A stretch of DNA of 64,000 bases, taken from contig CAVYXJ010000012.1 in the NCBI GenBank assembly GCA_963772455.1, positions 1 to 64,000 on the forward strand, in the 5' to 3' direction. The translations under genes were made by a program, and so were the position numbers. This DNA comes from Candidatus Bathyarchaeota archaeon (GTDB lineage Archaea; Thermoproteota; Bathyarchaeia; Bathyarchaeales; Bathycorpusculaceae). Below, piece after piece: positions 29,652-57,470 of this stretch (position 1 is its first letter; each line of letters begins with the position of its first letter). The notes under the pieces were generated by a model. That model had not been told where the DNA came from. It ran no database searches and saw nothing but the letters and a program-made list of their open reading frames with translations.

Positions 29652-29728
29652 TGGTGGGCCGTACCGGATTTGAACCGGTGATCTTCGCCGCGTGAGGGCG
29701 ACGTCCTAGCCAGCTAGACTAACGGCCC
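29652..29728 (-). tRNA. tRNA-Val(CAC), CCA encoded
   Basis: gggccgt/acggccc acceptor stem, tcgcc-ctCACgc-ggcga anticodon arm, accgg-ttcaaat-ccggt T arm. Confidence 0.97.
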
Positions 29729-30004: not shown

Positions 30005-30081
30005 GCCGAGGTAGCTCAGCCTGGGAGAGCGCTCGGCTGAAGACCGAGTCGTCGCATGTTCAAACCCTGCCCTCGGCACCA
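30005..30081 (+). tRNA. tRNA-Phe(GAA), CCA encoded
   Basis: gccgagg/cctcggc acceptor stem, ctcgg-ctGAAga-ccgag anticodon arm; T stem has one U-C mismatch. Confidence 0.95.
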
Positions 30082-33988: not shown

Positions 33989-36900
33989 ATGTCAAAATCT
34001 CTTTTCGATTCACTAAACAATTTCATTCGCAAACGGCACAGATTGATAATAATCGCCTGGGTAGTTGTAGTGCTGCTTTCGCTTATTCTTGATCCCCAGC
34101 TTTTTCTCAGCAGTTTCTTATGACTTAACTGGAGGATTTGGTTCCCGTTCAGATACTGAGTCAGATAGAGCTTCAAAAATAATAGATGCACAATTCCATA
34201 CATCTAGTAATGGAACTAGAAATAGTTCTGGTAGTGAAAACAACAGCATAATAGTTGTTCTTCAAGGAGTACCCGTATATTCTGATGCATTAAAACAAAA
34301 AGTGCTCACCTTAAACGATACTCTATCTAAAAATGCTGGCATATCAAATTACACTGGTCAAACAAGCCTTTACACATTGGAAGCTAGCCTTCTTAATTCG
34401 TCTTTATCAGATTTAATTAATCAGACTGCGAGTCTCCAATCCAATATAATCGAGATTAATTCTGGATTATTTACTTTAAGAGACAATTTTTCGGTGTTGA
34501 GCGAAAACTTGTTTGGGTTACAAACCGGTATCAATCAAACTGCTCAACTAGTTTTCGGTGTGCCCACAGCTTTCGTTGGTGTCTGGCAAGGTATAACTGC
34601 GCAGGGTGTATCGGACCCAATTATTGCGAACATACAAGCTAATGCAACATTGTATGTTTTAACCTCTAATTTCGGAGGCGATGCTCAATCAATAGGGTAT
34701 TACACGGCATTCTATAATGCATGGGATATCAGTTTTCAAGCACTTCCAAACGATATATCCATTGCAGACCGCGAAGCTTTTGCAATAGGACAATCTGTTT
34801 TAGGTTTCTTAAATAACCCGCAAATTGATTCACAAACAAAACAAATGATTGGTCTTGTTGCTTCGGGTTTAAATGTCAATACTTGGAATCGACCTGCAGC
34901 AATAACGAATCTAACAGTCACAACTATTGCCTCAAGCATACCTGAAGAATTTTCAACTGCACTAGGTGCCTCTCCCCTCAGTGTTGTCAATAGATTATAT
35001 GGATTTGGAGAGTCTCCTTCAAATGCAATACTTGGTAGTTACGCAATTTCGCTTTTGGAAAATTCTTATTCTAACCTGACATCTTCGGATGTAGGCTTTT
35101 CAATCTCTGATTTGTTAGGTGCCTCTTATCAACTTGGAGTATCTCCAAACAATTCACAAACATGGAAATTAGCAAGCGATTTTATTTCAAATGCCACCCA
35201 AAGCACCCTCTCTGATTCACCACTTTTCACAATAAATGCCACATCACTTAGTAATTTTATTTCAGAAATATCGCCAAATTCTACAACACCTGATTTGAAC
35301 CTTGCAATTGACGATTTAATTGCAACTCAACCTTACGTCAATTATCCTTTCATGCCTTCAAATGCTTTAACGGGCAATTTTGTTAATTCCAAAAATGATT
35401 CTATGTTAATTATTCTGGGATTCTCAAGTGAAACCAACCAAAACACGATTGCCCAAGTTGAGTCAGATGTGCAGAATTCTGGATTAAAAGACTTTGGAGC
35501 GGTTTATGTAACTGGTGGCTCAGTTTTAAGTAGAGATGTTGAGAAAGCCTTTTTGCCTGCTCTTGAAGTAACGGCGGGACCGGGAATAGCGATTTCTCTG
35601 TTAATCGTTGGACTCCTGTTTATGGCTCCGGTTGCTGCTTTGATTCCCGTAATTTTAGGAGGCATTTCAGTTTCGGTATCCCTAGCTGCAATTTACATTT
35701 CAGTTGTAGAAGTTGGTCATTCAACTTTGACTTTTCTAACACCAACATTAACCATTTTACTCATGTTAGGATTAGCAGTAGACTATGCGGTTTTGCAGCT
35801 TAAACGGACACGTGAAGAACGCCAGAAAGGCAAATCCATTGAAGAAAGTGTGGCTATTTCCCTTAAGTGGGCAGGTCAAGCAGTTCTTACTGCTGGGTTG
35901 ACGGTTATTGTTGCATACATCGTTATGGCTGTTGCAAACGTTCCAATATTTAGCGATGTTGGAATCGCTATTGCCTTAGGTGTTTCAATTTTACTTTTTG
36001 CATCACTTACTCTTTTGCCTGCTCTTGAAATTGCTTTAGGAGATAAGATATTCTGGCCTGGACTAAAGAAATTAGCTAAAAAATCTGATCCAAACAAGAA
36101 TGTACTAAAACGATTAGCGCAAGGCACACTTAAACATAAAGTTCCCATTGTAATAATGATCAGTTTACTTTCTTTAGGCGCTTTCTTTGTTGTTGCCAAT
36201 ACTCCTACTAGCGAAGATTTTCTCAGTTTGATTCCAAAATTCGAAAGCAATCAGGGACTTACCGTTATAGCTGACAGTTTTGGCAGCGGAACAATAGAAC
36301 CTACACAAATTGTCATTGTTACTACTTCACAAGTAACCTATGGAAACAACCAGTTTAACCAGACCTTGCTTAATCAGATTGAACAAATAACAGCCACCGC
36401 TGCAGAATCTAAGGGGGTAGCAACTGTTTCAAGTCCTACTAGACCTTTTGGAAATGCTTTTAACTATTCATCTATTGAGACCATGCCTGAACTGTTGCGT
36501 CTGCAATATCAGAGTCAAATGTTTTCGATGATTGGACAAGATAATAAGACAGTTGTTATCAATGTTGGATTTTCAAATTCAGCTTTTAGTCAAGGCGCCT
36601 TAGACTCATTGCAAACAATGGAGAAAAACATTAACGATCTCCCTGACTTGAGCGGTTTAACAATTTACTTTGGAGGCGCAACTCCATCAGCCTATGAAAG
36701 CCATTCGTTTATGACTTCATTAATTCCTCAAGTTGTAATAATTCTGTCAGCAGCAGTTTTCGTAATATTATTCTTCCAATTGCGTTCAGCTTTTACACCG
36801 ATTCGACTGATAATTACAATATTGTGTAGCGTCGTTTTTTCTTTAGCAATCATTTCTGCAATATTCTATTTCGCTCTGAATCTGCCAATTTTAGACTTCG

Positions 36901-47921: not shown

Positions 47922-48455
47922 TTGAAGTTCGAAAATGTCATCTTCCCTGATTCTGTGGGTTTCCAATGCAAAAATTGTGGCATTTGCTGTCGAATGCAGC
48001 CACCCGACATAAGTAAAACTGAACAAAAACGAATTGAGGCCAGAGGTTTCAAAGGTTTTTTGAGTGAACCTGACGAAAATGGAGTCTGTTGGATTCACAG
48101 AAAAGAAGATGGCGCCTGTTTCTTTCTTACAAAAGAAAACAAATGTGCAATCTATCCAGTTAGACCCCAAGTATGCAGGTTAGAACCATTTACCATCGTA
48201 GACTACGATTACAAGAAAAATATTATTGAATTACAATTGAACTTTCCATTTGCACAATGTTGTATAGGAGCATGTGATGAGAAAGCCGATCCACCTATTC
48301 AAGAAATTGGGCGGGCTGCTCAAATTCTTGTGCAAAAAATCTTGGCCTTAACAGCAAATGACCTTGATCTTCCAATAACTGATGAGAGGGTTCTTTCTGA
48401 AACTCGATCGAGGTTACTTCGCAGAACTGTTGAGATGGCAGACCTACAATTGTGA
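47922..48455 (+). CDS. YkgJ family cysteine-cluster protein
   Basis: FQCKNCGICC, CFFL, CAIYPVRPQVCRLEPF. Confidence 0.9.
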   Translation: MKFENVIFPDSVGFQCKNCGICCRMQPPDISKTEQKRIEARGFKGFLSEPDENGVCWIHRKEDGACFFLTKENKCAIYPVRPQVCRLEPFTIVDYDYKKNIIELQLNFPFAQCCIGACDEKADPPIQEIGRAAQILVQKILALTANDLDLPITDERVLSETRSRLLRRTVEMADLQL

Positions 48456-48607: not shown

Positions 48608-48751
48608 TTAGTATCGGCGTGGTGGTCTTCGTTTTGCGTAGCATTCTCGGCAGTATACTGGCCTGCTTCCGTCTGGCTTGAAAGGAACATCACATTCTTT
48701 TCCGCAGTCTGCGCAGGTTGCCTTGTGCATCTCTTTTGGATATGAGGACAT
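48608..48751 (-). CDS. CxxC-x17-CxxC zinc-ribbon protein (not in ORF track)
   Basis: MSSYPKEMHKATCADCGKECDVPFKPDGSRPVYCRECYAKRRPPRRY, 47 aa. Confidence 0.9.
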   Translation of the reverse strand: MSSYPKEMHKATCADCGKECDVPFKPDGSRPVYCRECYAKRRPPRRY

Positions 48752-49111
48752 TTAATTTTTCACTTCCTGTTTTATTGCTTTTGCAAATTACTTTGCAAGG
48801 TTGTTTAATGCTGACCTTACTATAAAGCTTATCCGTAGACAAAAAACAAAAGAGGTATTTCTTCACTTACAATTTTTAGGGTTACTTTCTTAAATATTTC
48901 TCATTTACAGCCATAAAACGTTTAAATGGATAAAAAAGAATTGAACTATTAATCAAAGAAGTTAATTGTCGAAATAATCTTTGGTATAATTATTTGTCAA
49001 CTATTGAGTGTGCTGTTTTGACTTTTTTTCTAATGTTCTAAATGGTACAATTTTTTCAGATTTTGTAGTGTAGATGTCACAAAATATAAGTTGAACTTGA
49101 TTCTTAGTTGT

Positions 49112-49351
49112 TTATGCAGGTCTGGGAGCAAGCTTTAGATGTAATGCATTGAGGCATAGAGTGCATTAATTAGAACAGCGAAAAATTAGTGCGCGATAAA
49201 GTCTTTGCCTTTATGGGCTGAACATGCATAGCGTTGGAATCATCTAAGCTGTGAAGTGGTAGGTTCAAAACGGCTGCAAGAATCTGCTGCGATTAAGGAA
49301 TTGCTTAGGTGGGTCGTAACCAGCGATAAGGCTCAGACTAGACCTGTGTAA
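49112..49351 (+). ncRNA. unidentified ~240-nt multi-stem structured RNA
   Basis: 14-bp terminal helix 49112-49125/49338-49351, several nested helices, TATA at 49083-49090, inverted repeat plus T-run at 49355-49404; no long ORF. Confidence 0.7.
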
Positions 49352-49605
49352 TTTAAGTGGAAAAAAATAGATATAGAAATATTCTAAAAATTCCACTTTT
49401 TTTTAATATTTAATTGAACGAGTCTTGGTTTTAGTTTAATGCGTCTATTCTTTGAAGAGCTTTATCTTTTTTATATGACATAGTTATTTACAGAATTTTT
49501 GCCAAGTGTTGTATAGTTAGTAAAGAAAGTTTGACTAAGCATTTTTAAAAGTTAGTAAAGAAACCTTTACGAAAAAGCTCTTAAGAACTGGGCATCAACG
49601 ATATT

Positions 49606-50801
49606 TTGATGGAAATGAAAGCTTTCAATACTTTAATTCTGGCAGTAATGATCGTTTCTATTTCTATTGTTTTCTTTCCTGTGAGTGCTAACGATAATTT
49701 TTCGGTAGGTGTCAAAAAAGGTGATTGGATTGAATATACCGTTAACATTACGGGTCCTACTTCGGCTCCAATTCATAATATCAGTTGGTTTAGAATTGAA
49801 ATTTTAGATGTTGAGGGTGTAGCGTTTGATGCAAATGTTACGGTTAGGAATGTTAATGGGTCATTGAGCAGTTCGATTTGGGAGTTTAACTTCTCCGAGG
49901 GGAATGTTGAAGGTTGGGTAATAATTCCTTCGAACTTAGGTGTTGGCGATATTTTTTATGATTCTTCAAAGCCTGCAAACATTACTATTTTGGGTGAAGA
50001 ACAAAAAATTGTGGCTGGTGCAACCCGAACAATAACACATTCTTCTGATTCTACAAGACCGATCAAGGAATGGGATAAAGCTACAGGTGTATACACTTAT
50101 TCGGTAGAATACCCAAAAAACTTCACAGTAATATCCCAAGCTATTTCAACAAATATGTGGAATCCTCAAACTCTGGACTTAAACAAGACGACATTTAACG
50201 CAGTGGTTGCGCTAAGTATTGTTTTAACAGGATTCATTGCATCGTCTTTAGTTATTACACGAAGAGATAAAATAAGAAAGCTCACTTTGATTCATTCATC
50301 GCAAGGAAAAATCGCAGTCCTTACTATTCTTAGCAACAGTTTTAGGAATAATTGGAGCCATAGTGTTCTTCCCTTTTTCTATAGGTAGGGTTGAGTTTTG
50401 CTGAGATTAACCTTATTATGCAAACTATATGGACAAGTTTGATTTTAGTGAGCATGTTTTTTAGATTTAAAGGAAAATATTTTGTTCATGAGATTACAAT
50501 GTTAATTGCAATTTGTGCCTTGTTAGTTAGTTTTTCTGCTGTAATATTTATGGGTCCGCTAACTACCAGTTCCGCTTTCTCTAGTTCACTTTCTCGTTTG
50601 GTTATGAATAGTTTGCATGGTATTTTTTCTATTCCCGCAATAGTTTTTGGAGTATGGCTAGTATTACTTTGGCGTCCAGGGTCAGATTCGTTTGCGTTTA
50701 AGAGTAAAAGAATAGCGCAATTAACAATAATTTTTTGGGTCCCATCGTATGTGGTGGGTGTTTTAGATTTTATTTTACTTCATACCAGTTTCTTTGGATA
50801 A
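49606..50801 (+). CDS. secreted beta-rich domain fused to DUF420-like TM domain, frameshifted near 50330-50390
   Basis: ORF 49606-50388 (VGVKKGDWIEY) and ORF 50391-50801 (SFAEINL...HEITM...SLHG) are bridged by a TM segment in another frame. Confidence 0.6.
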
Positions 50802-51683: not shown

Positions 51684-52064
51684 TTATCCTTCGACTTTTA
51701 CTGTAAATCCTCCCACCGAGAAACGTTTCATGTCAAATGGCATTGAGACATCTTTCTTTCCTTCTGCCTGCTTCATCCCTTCTTCCATCACTTTTGCATT
51801 GATTTCATCCCGCTTCTCTTTAGACTCATAAACAATAAAGGAGAACCATACCGTGTCGGTTGGTTGCGCTTTTGTTAACTCCCTAAATGAAAGTGGCTTC
51901 ATGCCGCCCATGTCTTTTGGTTCAAGATCTTCACCAGCACATTCCATGTATTCGAGTGCGCCATATTTCATCCACATATCCCGTCCTTCCCGAGCCATTT
52001 TTTCGTATTCTTCAACCTTGTCTTTAGGAACCACAAACACAAAACCATCAACATATTTCGCCAA
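51684..52064 (-). CDS. DUF1428 (YbaA-like) protein, copy 2
   Basis: About 70% identical by manual alignment to 30857-31246. Confidence 0.9.
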   Translation of the reverse strand: MAKYVDGFVFVVPKDKVEEYEKMAREGRDMWMKYGALEYMECAGEDLEPKDMGGMKPLSFRELTKAQPTDTVWFSFIVYESKEKRDEINAKVMEEGMKQAEGKKDVSMPFDMKRFSVGGFTVKVEG

Positions 52065-52204
52065 AACGCTTCACCTAACTATTGGGATTAATGGACCTGT
52101 GGATTTGAGCTTTTGTGGTTGTTTATCGGTAGTCACAAGTATAGTGTCTAGAAGAACTCTAACAAAAATATAGAACATCGGAGAGCAAAAAATTACTAAG
52201 CCCA

Positions 52205-55626: not shown

Positions 55627-56530
55627 ATGAAACATGAGCATCAACCAAGAATAGATAAACTATCCGATATCCATGAGTACAAAGGAGCTACAAAAAAGCG
55701 TCTTTTACTTTCTATGATCATCACCGCCTCAGTAATGGTTATCGAAGTCATCGGAAGCACGTTAACAGGCAGCTTGGCATTAGCAAGTGATGCAGCACAT
55801 ATGTTTACGCATTTGTTTGCGTTAGCAATTAGTTTTACAGCCATTATAATTGCATGTAAAAAACCATGCCACCATAGAACATATCGGTTACTTCAGAGCC
55901 GAAATTCTCGCCGCTTTGTTTAATAGTATTTTCCTTTTTGCAGTAACCGCATACATATTATACGAAGGGATAGAACGGTTACTAAATCCGCAACCAGTTT
56001 TGGGCTTTGAAATGTTTTTGGTTGCCTTGGCGGGGTTGGCCGCGAATGGATTTAGCATACTCATTCTTCGCAACAGCATGAGAAACGACCTAAATGTTAG
56101 AGGAGCTTTTCTTCACATGTTTGCAGATGCTGCATCCTCGGTCGCCATCATATTTGGAGCAATAATTGTTGCTTATAGTGGATGGTATTTTATTGACCCG
56201 CTATTAGGAATAGGGATATCCGTATTGATTTTTGTTTGGGCATACGGGCTATTGCGCGACTCCATTAATGTTTTAATGGAAACTGCTCCAAAAGGCATGA
56301 ATATTGACTTGGTAACAGCGCAAATTAAGGAAAATATTCCTGAGGTGGTGGCAATAAATGATATTCATATTTGGGAAATTACTTCTGGAATGTATTCTTT
56401 AACTGCTCATGTAGAGGCAAATATAACTGATGAGAATATAGAGGATATTATCGCTAGAATAAACAAGTTGTTGGCGGATAAATTCGCAATCGAGCACACG
56501 ACATTACAAATTCAGCCCAAGAAGATATAA
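55627..56530 (+). CDS. cation diffusion facilitator (CzcD/ZitB-like), frameshift near 55883
   Basis: SLALASDAAHMFTH, RAEILAALFN, RGAFLHMFAD, DIHIW, HTTLQ. Confidence 0.88.
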
Positions 56531-57155: not shown

Positions 57156-57470
57156 TGGGCTGGTGTGTTGGTTGTAACCCGCCTTCTGTTGTCTGTGGCA
57201 TTCGGCTAATCGGGCTACCCGCGCCTTCCGGTAGATTCTTCATCGGCGACTGTTTGCCCTTTCCACATGCAGGACGGCCGTTTCACCGCTTCCAGCCCAG
57301 CACACTCGACATCACAAATGTCTCATAGCCTATCTGGGTGGACGTTTCGTTTCTGCTCCGTTGCCAAGGCTCTCGCCTTGTTCCCTGCGGAACTGCACTT
57401 CTACTTGTGGGCGGAGTTTCCTCAGACCCAAATTTTGGGTCCGAAAGCCACACACCAACTCGCCAGCCCA
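57156..57470 (-). ncRNA. rnpB: RNase P RNA
   Basis: P4 halves GAGGAAACUCCGCCC and AACAGAAGGCGGGUUA; GCAGAAAC and GGUGAAAC T-loops; terminal P1 ugggcugg/ccagccca. Confidence 0.96.

Follow-up and report, generated by a model that had tools for sequence, protein, structure and literature searches.

Circular RNAs released at bulge-helix-bulge (BHB) motifs are found in archaea as by-products or intermediates, i.e., as tRNA introns and pre-rRNA, along with one repaired, permuted SRP RNA. The SRP RNA of Thermoproteus is permuted, circularized and matured via BHB cleavage. Large ornate noncoding RNAs (ncRNAs) such as OLE, GOLLD, ROOL and raiA are, in turn, known from bacteria; they are strongly covarying, pseudoknotted and widespread, possess their own promoter and lack an obvious target. 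Repetition of a whole RNA module is exemplified by the tandem aptamers of the glycine riboswitch, in which one or two homologous ligand-binding modules are present per RNA. As for the biogenesis of archaeal circles, EndA cleavage at BHB motifs and subsequent circularization by a ligase are established (PMC7714728; PMC12558985), and the BHB motif is described as a 4-bp helix flanked by two 3-nt bulges (PMC7714728). Among the excised tRNA introns that are circularized is the tRNA-Trp intron, which is a C/D box RNA (PMC7714728; PMC12558985; PMC12918454).

Here, we analyzed a locus within a 64,000-nt stretch of a Bathyarchaeia genome (the window, by which we mean the whole stretch). We consider it likely that the sole purpose of this locus is to encode a structured, modular ncRNA that is processed into a circle at a BHB motif and for which we propose the role of a binding platform. 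Its predicted biogenesis is the same as that of archaeal tRNA-intron circles and circular pre-16S/23S rRNAs (PMC7714728; PMC12558985; PMC12918454). Yet, unlike these circles, the cassette is situated outside any tRNA, rRNA or mRNA, and the sequence and fold of the circle match no known RNA family. The "exons" are merely a leader of ~20 nt and a short trailer; production of the circle thus seems to be what the gene is for. The likeness to the Thermoproteus SRP RNA lies in the BHB cleavage and circularization of a functional, housekeeping-type ncRNA. However, that RNA is a permuted form of a known one, whereas here an ordinary SRP RNA is encoded elsewhere and there is no sign of a permuted family, as judged with a linear Rfam query. 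With OLE, GOLLD, ROOL and raiA the RNA shares covariation, pseudoknots, wide spread, its own promoter and no obvious target, but it is archaeal, much smaller per module, composed of one to three repeated modules and apparently circular. As in the glycine riboswitch, homologous, ligand-binding-like modules stand side by side; in contrast to it, this RNA does not reside in a 5' leader, the genes downstream frequently converge on it and it is cut out of its transcript.

Organization of the Locus

The locus occupies an 850-bp gap between a zinc-ribbon gene (48608-48751, minus strand) and a plus-strand ORF starting at 49606. The first-pass annotation described the region as a GC-richer island in an ORF-poor gap, and this holds: GC content is 0.38-0.48 at 49100-49349 and 0.21-0.29 in both flanks, and the only ORFs that overlap the gap are 31-43 aa long. 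Assignment of the RNA to the plus strand was likewise borne out by folding statistics. The plus strand of 49105-49355 reaches -81.3 kcal/mol (z = -3.47), a value as good as which was obtained with 0/200 shuffles, whereas the minus strand folds weakly (z = -0.77; 45/200 shuffles as good).

The segment 49112-49404 (+) is an independent transcription unit, in which a structured RNA is preceded by a BRE/TATA promoter and followed by a terminator hairpin and a T-run (Table 1). The TATA element pointed out previously is located 33 nt before the outer helix of the RNA, within a conserved promoter block that in homologues reads TGTC[A/G]CAAA or GTGCAAAAG, directly followed by TTTATA/TTATATA. A narrow TATA pattern recovered the element in 22/62 upstream flanks, at a distance of 26-34 nt from the outer helix; the wider block was judged by eye. 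On the other side, the aagtggaa/ttccactt hairpin and the T8 run are present as proposed, and GUGGAA...UUCCAC with a T-run was found again at sister loci. A run of five or more T residues occurs within 120 nt downstream in 32/62 flanks. Elsewhere in the window, two overlapping plus-strand ORFs of 98 and 226 aa (55627-55923 and 55850-56530) look by eye like two parts of a single cation-efflux-type membrane transporter, which may point to a frameshift or sequencing error.

Table 1. Positions of the RNA gene elements in the window and of selected genes at other loci
Feature	Position	Strand	Remarks
Promoter block	49075..49090	+	BRE-like TGTCACAAA, then TATA-like AATATAA; read from sequence
Outer helix P1, 5' strand, with 5' leader ("h" of BHB)	49112..49125	+	absent from mature RNA
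BHB central helix, 5' strand GAGC	49126..49129	+	pairs with 49331-34
5' bulge AAG	49130..49132	+	inferred cut 49131/49132
Apparent mature circular RNA, 205 nt	49132..49336	+	joint in two contigs of RNA run X14
P2, 5' strand GCUUUA	49132..49137	+	partner 49327-32
Module 1	49147..49224	+	P3 49147-59/49203-15; P4 49161-71/49184-94
Module 1 loops		+	apical loop 49172-83; A-rich bulge 49195-202
Module 1 pseudoknot	CAGC 49176-79 with GCUG 49217-20	+	covariation
Module 2	49232..49325	+	closing helix 49232-37/49320-25; P3' 49241-49/49303-11
Module 2, distal part		+	P4' 49256-66/49280-90; loop 49267-79; pseudoknot 49270-74 with 49313-17
BHB central helix, 3' strand GCUC	49331..49334	+	53/53 homologues; generic scanner
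3' bulge AGA	49335..49337	+	inferred cut 49336/49337
Outer helix P1, 3' strand	49338..49351	+	absent from mature RNA
Trailer with terminator-like hairpin	49355..49404	+	AAGTGGAA 49355-62 / TTCCACTT 49391-98
T8 run	49397-404	+	read from sequence; end of trailer
Unsupported inner helices of the first-pass annotation	49131-41/49241-50; 49142-50/49160-68		also ataaag/ctttat; aatc/gatt; ctta/taag; ggt/acc
P0 gene, examples	L064:1690-2340; own genome C7:270044-270667 (L208 1459-2133)	+; -	
RNase III-domain genes (PF00636)	L232 764-1291; L237 1666-2334; L239 1672-2373	-; +; +	

Comparison With Known RNA Families

Across the whole window, the only Rfam 15 matches were an archaeal RNase P RNA (57163-57463, minus strand, 198.3 bits) and two tRNA genes (29655-29728, minus strand; 30005-30078, plus strand). 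The region 48750-49620 gave no match at gathering scores, and a permissive scan (E<=10) returned chance-level matches only, with 11.9-20.2 bits against cut-offs of 39-71; those to sroB, ceN70, mir-6529 and others were dismissed. Neither a ribozyme family (E<=10) nor OLE, GOLLD, ROOL or raiA was matched in the Rfam scans of the locus, and six homologous loci produced no match at E<=0.1. All these scans used the linear sequence. Elsewhere in the genome, SRP RNA was detected twice with identical scores of 158.2 bits (C2:8678-8992 and C5:140801-141115), which reflects a genuine second copy or else redundancy in the assembly. Since there is no Rfam match and both SRP RNA and RNase P RNA are located elsewhere, the candidate is none of the usual archaeal RNAs, in agreement with the earlier exclusion of SRP RNA, RNase P RNA and tRNA.

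Likenesses to a kink-turn, H/ACA and C/D RNAs, a hammerhead core and a cobalamin core were checked by eye and dropped. For the kink-turn, inspection of the one-module alignment (A4, see below) revealed no asymmetric loop with tandem sheared G-A pairs. The single unpaired 5'-strand base of the 1x8 internal loop is an A, and the neighboring G pairs with C in 21/22 sequences (pair 44-89), which makes tandem G-A pairs impossible in the supported register. In the literature searched, including text on archaeal circular RNAs, the family is undescribed. The view that the locus encodes an independently transcribed structured ncRNA, new to Rfam 15 and to that literature, is thereby upheld.

Modular Structure of the RNA

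Homologues were collected into alignments of 23 two-module sequences (A2) and 22 one-module precursors (A4). RNAalifold predicted 55 pairs for the 23 sequences, 30 of them with compensatory changes. The refined two-module structure comprises 65 pairs including the pseudoknot; 92.7% of cells are paired in A2, and 39/65 pairs are changed on both sides, a level reached by 0/500 shuffles, with 32-40% in slid controls. The one-module alignment behaves similarly, with 97.4% of cells paired, versus 24-45% for slid controls, and 36/54 pairs changed on both sides. Covariation is very strong in both alignments. The closing stem named in the first-pass annotation holds: in P1, 8/10 of the pairs 49116-25/49338-47 are changed on both sides in A2, and the copy of the window forms 10/10. 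P2 is 100% paired and almost invariant in A2, and its covariation comes from the one-module alignment, in which 6/12 pairs are changed on both sides.

The fate of the internal helices proposed from the single sequence was different. Six of them (Table 1) pair in 65.3% of A2 cells compared with a shuffle mean of 65.5%, and 334/500 shuffles reach the observed value. The structure supported by covariation uses other partners, e.g., 49241-49 with 49303-11. The cagc/gctg pairing is real, yet it constitutes a pseudoknot and not a nested helix, and the gtggt/gctgc hairpin is supported in part by covariation in A2. What was described as a T-loop-like loop is actually the pseudoknot-forming apical loop of module 2. 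Overlooked altogether were the two-module repeat architecture, the BHB processing motif and the circular product.

The RNA consists of two homologous pseudoknotted hairpin modules of ~100 nt, its 3' domain being a second copy of the module. Modules 1 and 2 are alike in stem lengths, in the A-rich bulge GAYNAAGA, in the apical loop AAAC-RGC-NRAARA and in the GGGCYG bulge. Both follow the layout P3, 1x8 A-rich internal loop, P4 and an apical loop of 12-13 nt, in which helices of 13 and 11 bp are hinged by the 1x8 loop so that the apical loop is brought to the hairpin base. There, it pairs with a conserved bulge, by which each module becomes a compact pseudoknot. Depending on the lineage, this pairing is CAGC/GCUG or CGGC/GCCG. 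For the module 1-type helices P3 and P4 and the pseudoknot, 10/13, 10/11 and 1/4 pairs, respectively, are changed on both sides in A4, where 97-100% of their cells pair; one pseudoknot pair is represented there as GC (15 sequences), AU (6) and GU (1). In the clade of the window, 4/5 pairs of the module 2 pseudoknot are changed on both sides (A2). About 45 loop, bulge and junction nucleotides are invariant per module, and relatives possess one, two or three modules.

The BHB Motif and the Probable Circular Product

The gagc/gctc helix, noted earlier as an extension of the closing stem, proved to be the center of a BHB motif. All four pairs are kept in 53/53 distinct homologues found with a sequence pattern, of which 17 have one module, 34 have two and 2 have three; the helix reads GAGC/GCUC, GAGC/GCUU, AAGU/GCUU and others, with changes of G-C to A-U and C-G to U-G. 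In the same pattern-selected set, 7-10 of the 10 outer-helix pairs form, the 5' bulge is NNG in 53/53 and the 3' bulge is AGA in 52/53 and TGA in one. The predicted circles measure 106-109 nt for one-module, 192-207 nt for two-module and about 289 nt for three-module copies. By relaxing the pattern we gained five more one-module copies and encountered some copies with an AGG bulge; six spurious combinations that overlapped true copies, recognized from their flanks, were dropped. A generic hBHBh' scanner, which is free of this pattern, reported the motif at three of four Bathyarchaeia loci (L003, L064 and L206) and missed L202, where the inner helix is relaxed. With the same scanner, a canonical BHB was found in 0/9 loci of the Methanomicrobiales relatives; circularity may be dispensable for the family. 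In the window, the outer helix is 10 bp long and the inner helix CUU/AAG has just 3 bp in the canonical register, since in the precursor 49331-32 can be part of either P2 or the central helix.

Near-identical sequence is present in public sequencing runs, six of which are recorded as RNA, and we compared assembled contigs of one DNA run and three RNA runs. Contigs of the RNA runs are confined to 49128-49357, whereas those of the DNA run X1 extend to 49414. In RNA runs X6, X14 and X17, several contigs start aligning at 49132 and not at the start of P1, where the 5' end of the RNA had been placed. In X14, one of the three RNA runs, two assembled contigs join 49336 back to 49132, i.e., the alignment goes back by 205. 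One of them is 235 nt long (205+30), the length expected of a 205-nt circle from a 31-mer assembler; the other has 262 nt, with 7 other letters across its two pieces. Run X6 contains a 229-nt linear contig, 49128-49357, with a depth of 5, that spans the 3' site and may represent the precursor or DNA carried in the library.

On each strand, the distance from the 3' end of the central helix to the joined position (49132 or 49336) is exactly 2 nt. The splicing endonuclease cuts after the second bulge nucleotide of a canonical BHB. As the X14 joint coincides exactly with the two cuts predicted in this way, maturation appears to yield a circular RNA of 205 nt. A tandem DNA duplication could mimic such a joint, but none was seen among the 53 genomic copies. 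The genome itself encodes the enzymes expected for this type of processing, with two matches to the splicing-endonuclease family PF01974 (E = 1.9e-28 and 3.3e-21) and one to RtcB (PF01139, E = 2.8e-179). Double duty of the P2/junction stretch, as a part of the BHB precursor and as the UCAG-capped helix, would explain its near-invariance.

Distribution and Copy Number

We found by blastn that the element is present in 21/41 related genomes, including 19/24 of the same genus, at 69-82% identity, and that one other family carries a 137-nt short form. Searches with covariance models of the 5' half, i.e., module 1 (R1), and of one-module RNAs (R2) extended this range. R1 matched 74/151 genomes sampled from the order of the window, often as two or three abutting copies; by family, the counts were 33/34, 19/35, 4/4, 13/35, 2/25 and 2/3, with none in several families. 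In the class of the window, R1 matched 25/151 genomes, and in its phylum R2 matched 7/151, all of them within that class. Among the 80 matches listed for a loose DNA pattern applied to contigs, 71 lacked an R1 match and were regarded as chance hits. Among the matches listed, the public-record loci confirmed by R1 were eight from Bathyarchaeota/Bathyarchaeia and one from Methanolinea sp. In the order of the latter record (Methanomicrobiales), R1 matched 10/101 genomes, where the matched RNAs have mostly three modules; in its phylum it matched 3/151, all among the genomes of the order search.

The genome of the window encodes a second two-module copy at C5 ~51930-52190 (L206 3458-3690), with a predicted circle of 196 nt and its own TATA-like box, divergent from an Alba gene (PF01918). 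Three-module versions occur at L020/L044 (genome G013, C12 ~34770-35060) and L086, with predicted circles of 289 nt; their apparent origin is a tandem duplication within module 1 that involved its inner part.

Gene Context

The gene upstream of the RNA in the window encodes a treble-clef zinc finger (PF23477, E = 5.9e-20). In other families, the RNA is divergent from a gene for a protein of ~217 aa without a Pfam family, here called P0, which holds this position in 19/32 loci from several families. By eye, the invariant residues of P0 (E, D, ExE and K), set in an alpha-beta-beta-beta-alpha arrangement, suggest a PD-(D/E)xK nuclease fold; the AlphaFold model is poor (pLDDT 49). The protein is encoded by 74/151 genomes of the class, namely 23/25 RNA-positive genomes and 51 without an RNA match, and at 12 loci in genomes free of RNA matches it stands with no adjoining RNA. 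P0 is thus widespread without the RNA, and in the genome of the window it adjoins neither RNA copy; its proximity was taken as synteny, and P0 as a candidate partner at most.

A gene with an RNase III domain, whose product is another candidate partner, is divergent from the RNA in 3/9 Methanomicrobiales loci (Table 1); the RNAs at these three loci have a long closing duplex without a canonical BHB. A PF03692 (CxxCxxCC-domain) gene, with copies at 47922-48455 (plus strand) in the window, L035 5367-5915 and L040 1301-1855, is found near the RNA in the window and at three sister loci, and is the convergent downstream gene in two other genomes. This proximity is probably plain synteny.

Alternative Interpretations

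Among the competing explanations, the one with the most to recommend it, although we consider it unlikely, is that of a stable, linear structured ncRNA whose ends are clamped by P1, the BHB-like geometry being incidental or giving rise to a minor circular by-product. The linear X6 contig across the 3' site, the long closing helix without a canonical BHB in the Methanomicrobiales relatives and the appearance of the circular joint in one run only fit such an RNA. It does not account, however, for a joint that two distinct sequence variants place exactly at both symmetric BHB positions, for RNA contigs that begin at 49132, for BHB elements kept with compensatory changes in all pattern-selected copies, or for the near-invariant P2-UCAG-P2 stretch, which is what a double constraint predicts. 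A related possibility is that the circle is the waste of an intron-like cassette and that the ligated flanks, i.e., the leader and the trailer hairpin, are the functional product. BHB processing does also join exons, and the trailer hairpin is conserved within the clade of the window; yet almost every invariant or covarying position belongs to the excised part, the short flanks vary between families, and the RNA contigs cover the excised part and not the flanks, so that we give this reading very little credence. A mobile or selfish element, either a MITE-like repeat or an integrated viroid-like replicon, could be suspected from the presence of several copies in some genomes (up to six module matches in two of them), the varied neighborhoods within the genus of the window and the occurrence of a small circular RNA in metatranscriptomes. 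Such an origin seems very improbable nonetheless, given that every copy keeps its own host-type promoter, that in other families the gene is fixed between the same two genes (in 19 and 18 of 32 loci), that the compensatory changes are those of a functional RNA and that circularization would proceed through host BHB processing, with no ribozyme family matched.

Two further readings tie the RNA to adjacent genes. A cis-acting riboswitch or leader, e.g., for cobalt or cobalamin, that controls a downstream gene is called to mind by tandem modules reminiscent of tandem aptamers, by the loose B12 box resemblance mentioned in the first-pass annotation, by cobalamin-synthesis genes nearby in one genome and by a same-strand CbiM gene downstream at three sister loci (+640 in one; +1371, past an intervening opposite-strand gene, in the other two). 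However, the first downstream ORF converges on the RNA gene in 12/20 extended loci, and at further loci a DNA ligase gene does so in 18/32. Together with the RNA's own promoter and terminator, these orientations effectively rule out a 5' leader; gene orientation contradicts membership in a 5' untranslated region, the product is excised from its flanks and no cobalamin or other riboswitch was matched even at E<=10, all of which renders this explanation highly improbable. The least probable of all is the earlier idea that the RNA is the partner of the divergent 47-aa zinc-ribbon protein. The PF23477 gene is indeed divergent and ~360 nt from the RNA start, but this adjacency was found in 4/25 loci only, all from close relatives, and other copies, including the second one in the same genome, have other neighbors.

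Proposed Biogenesis, Function and Significance

We therefore return to a dedicated circular-RNA gene as the preferred interpretation. The BRE/TATA promoter would yield a precursor of ~290 nt starting near 49112, whose ends would pair as P1; P1, the GAGC/GCUC helix and the two 3-nt bulges would then constitute a canonical BHB. The tRNA-splicing endonuclease is predicted to cut after 49131 and after 49336, and an RtcB-type ligase would join the resulting ends into the 205-nt covalently closed RNA 49132-49336. After ligation, the junction tetraloop UCAG (49333-36) would cap P2, which carries both modules. The circle could then serve as an exonuclease-resistant, multivalent platform in which the invariant loop, bulge and junction nucleotides act as putative binding sites, one per module, for a protein or, with lower probability, for a small ligand. 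Invariant nucleotides, a compact fold and the presence of one to three modules fit a precise binding surface repeated on a nuclease-resistant scaffold. We offer a function as a multivalent protein- or ligand-binding platform tentatively and with low confidence.

In a broader sense, the locus may represent an unrecognized class of archaeal genes, i.e., "intron-only" cassettes that solely make a covalently closed, pseudoknotted RNA of one to three ancient ~100-nt modules common to Bathyarchaeia and Methanomicrobiales, with a cellular role of its own as an RNA-only or RNP machine, a sponge for ligands or proteins, or a new catalytic fold; we regard the chances of this proposal as evenly balanced. 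Circles made through BHB motifs are already known, and what is new is the dedicated gene family for a modular, pseudoknotted circular RNA. A stand-alone, promoter-driven gene that makes only a circle would, if true, put the splicing machinery to another use. The case also shows that not every small circular RNA in metatranscriptomes has to be a replicon. If the genomes matched in Methanomicrobiales include cultured strains, the function of the module could be tested at the bench. The RNA has a high degree of structure, and its conservation extends to many families of a class of archaea that is uncultivated and abundant worldwide.
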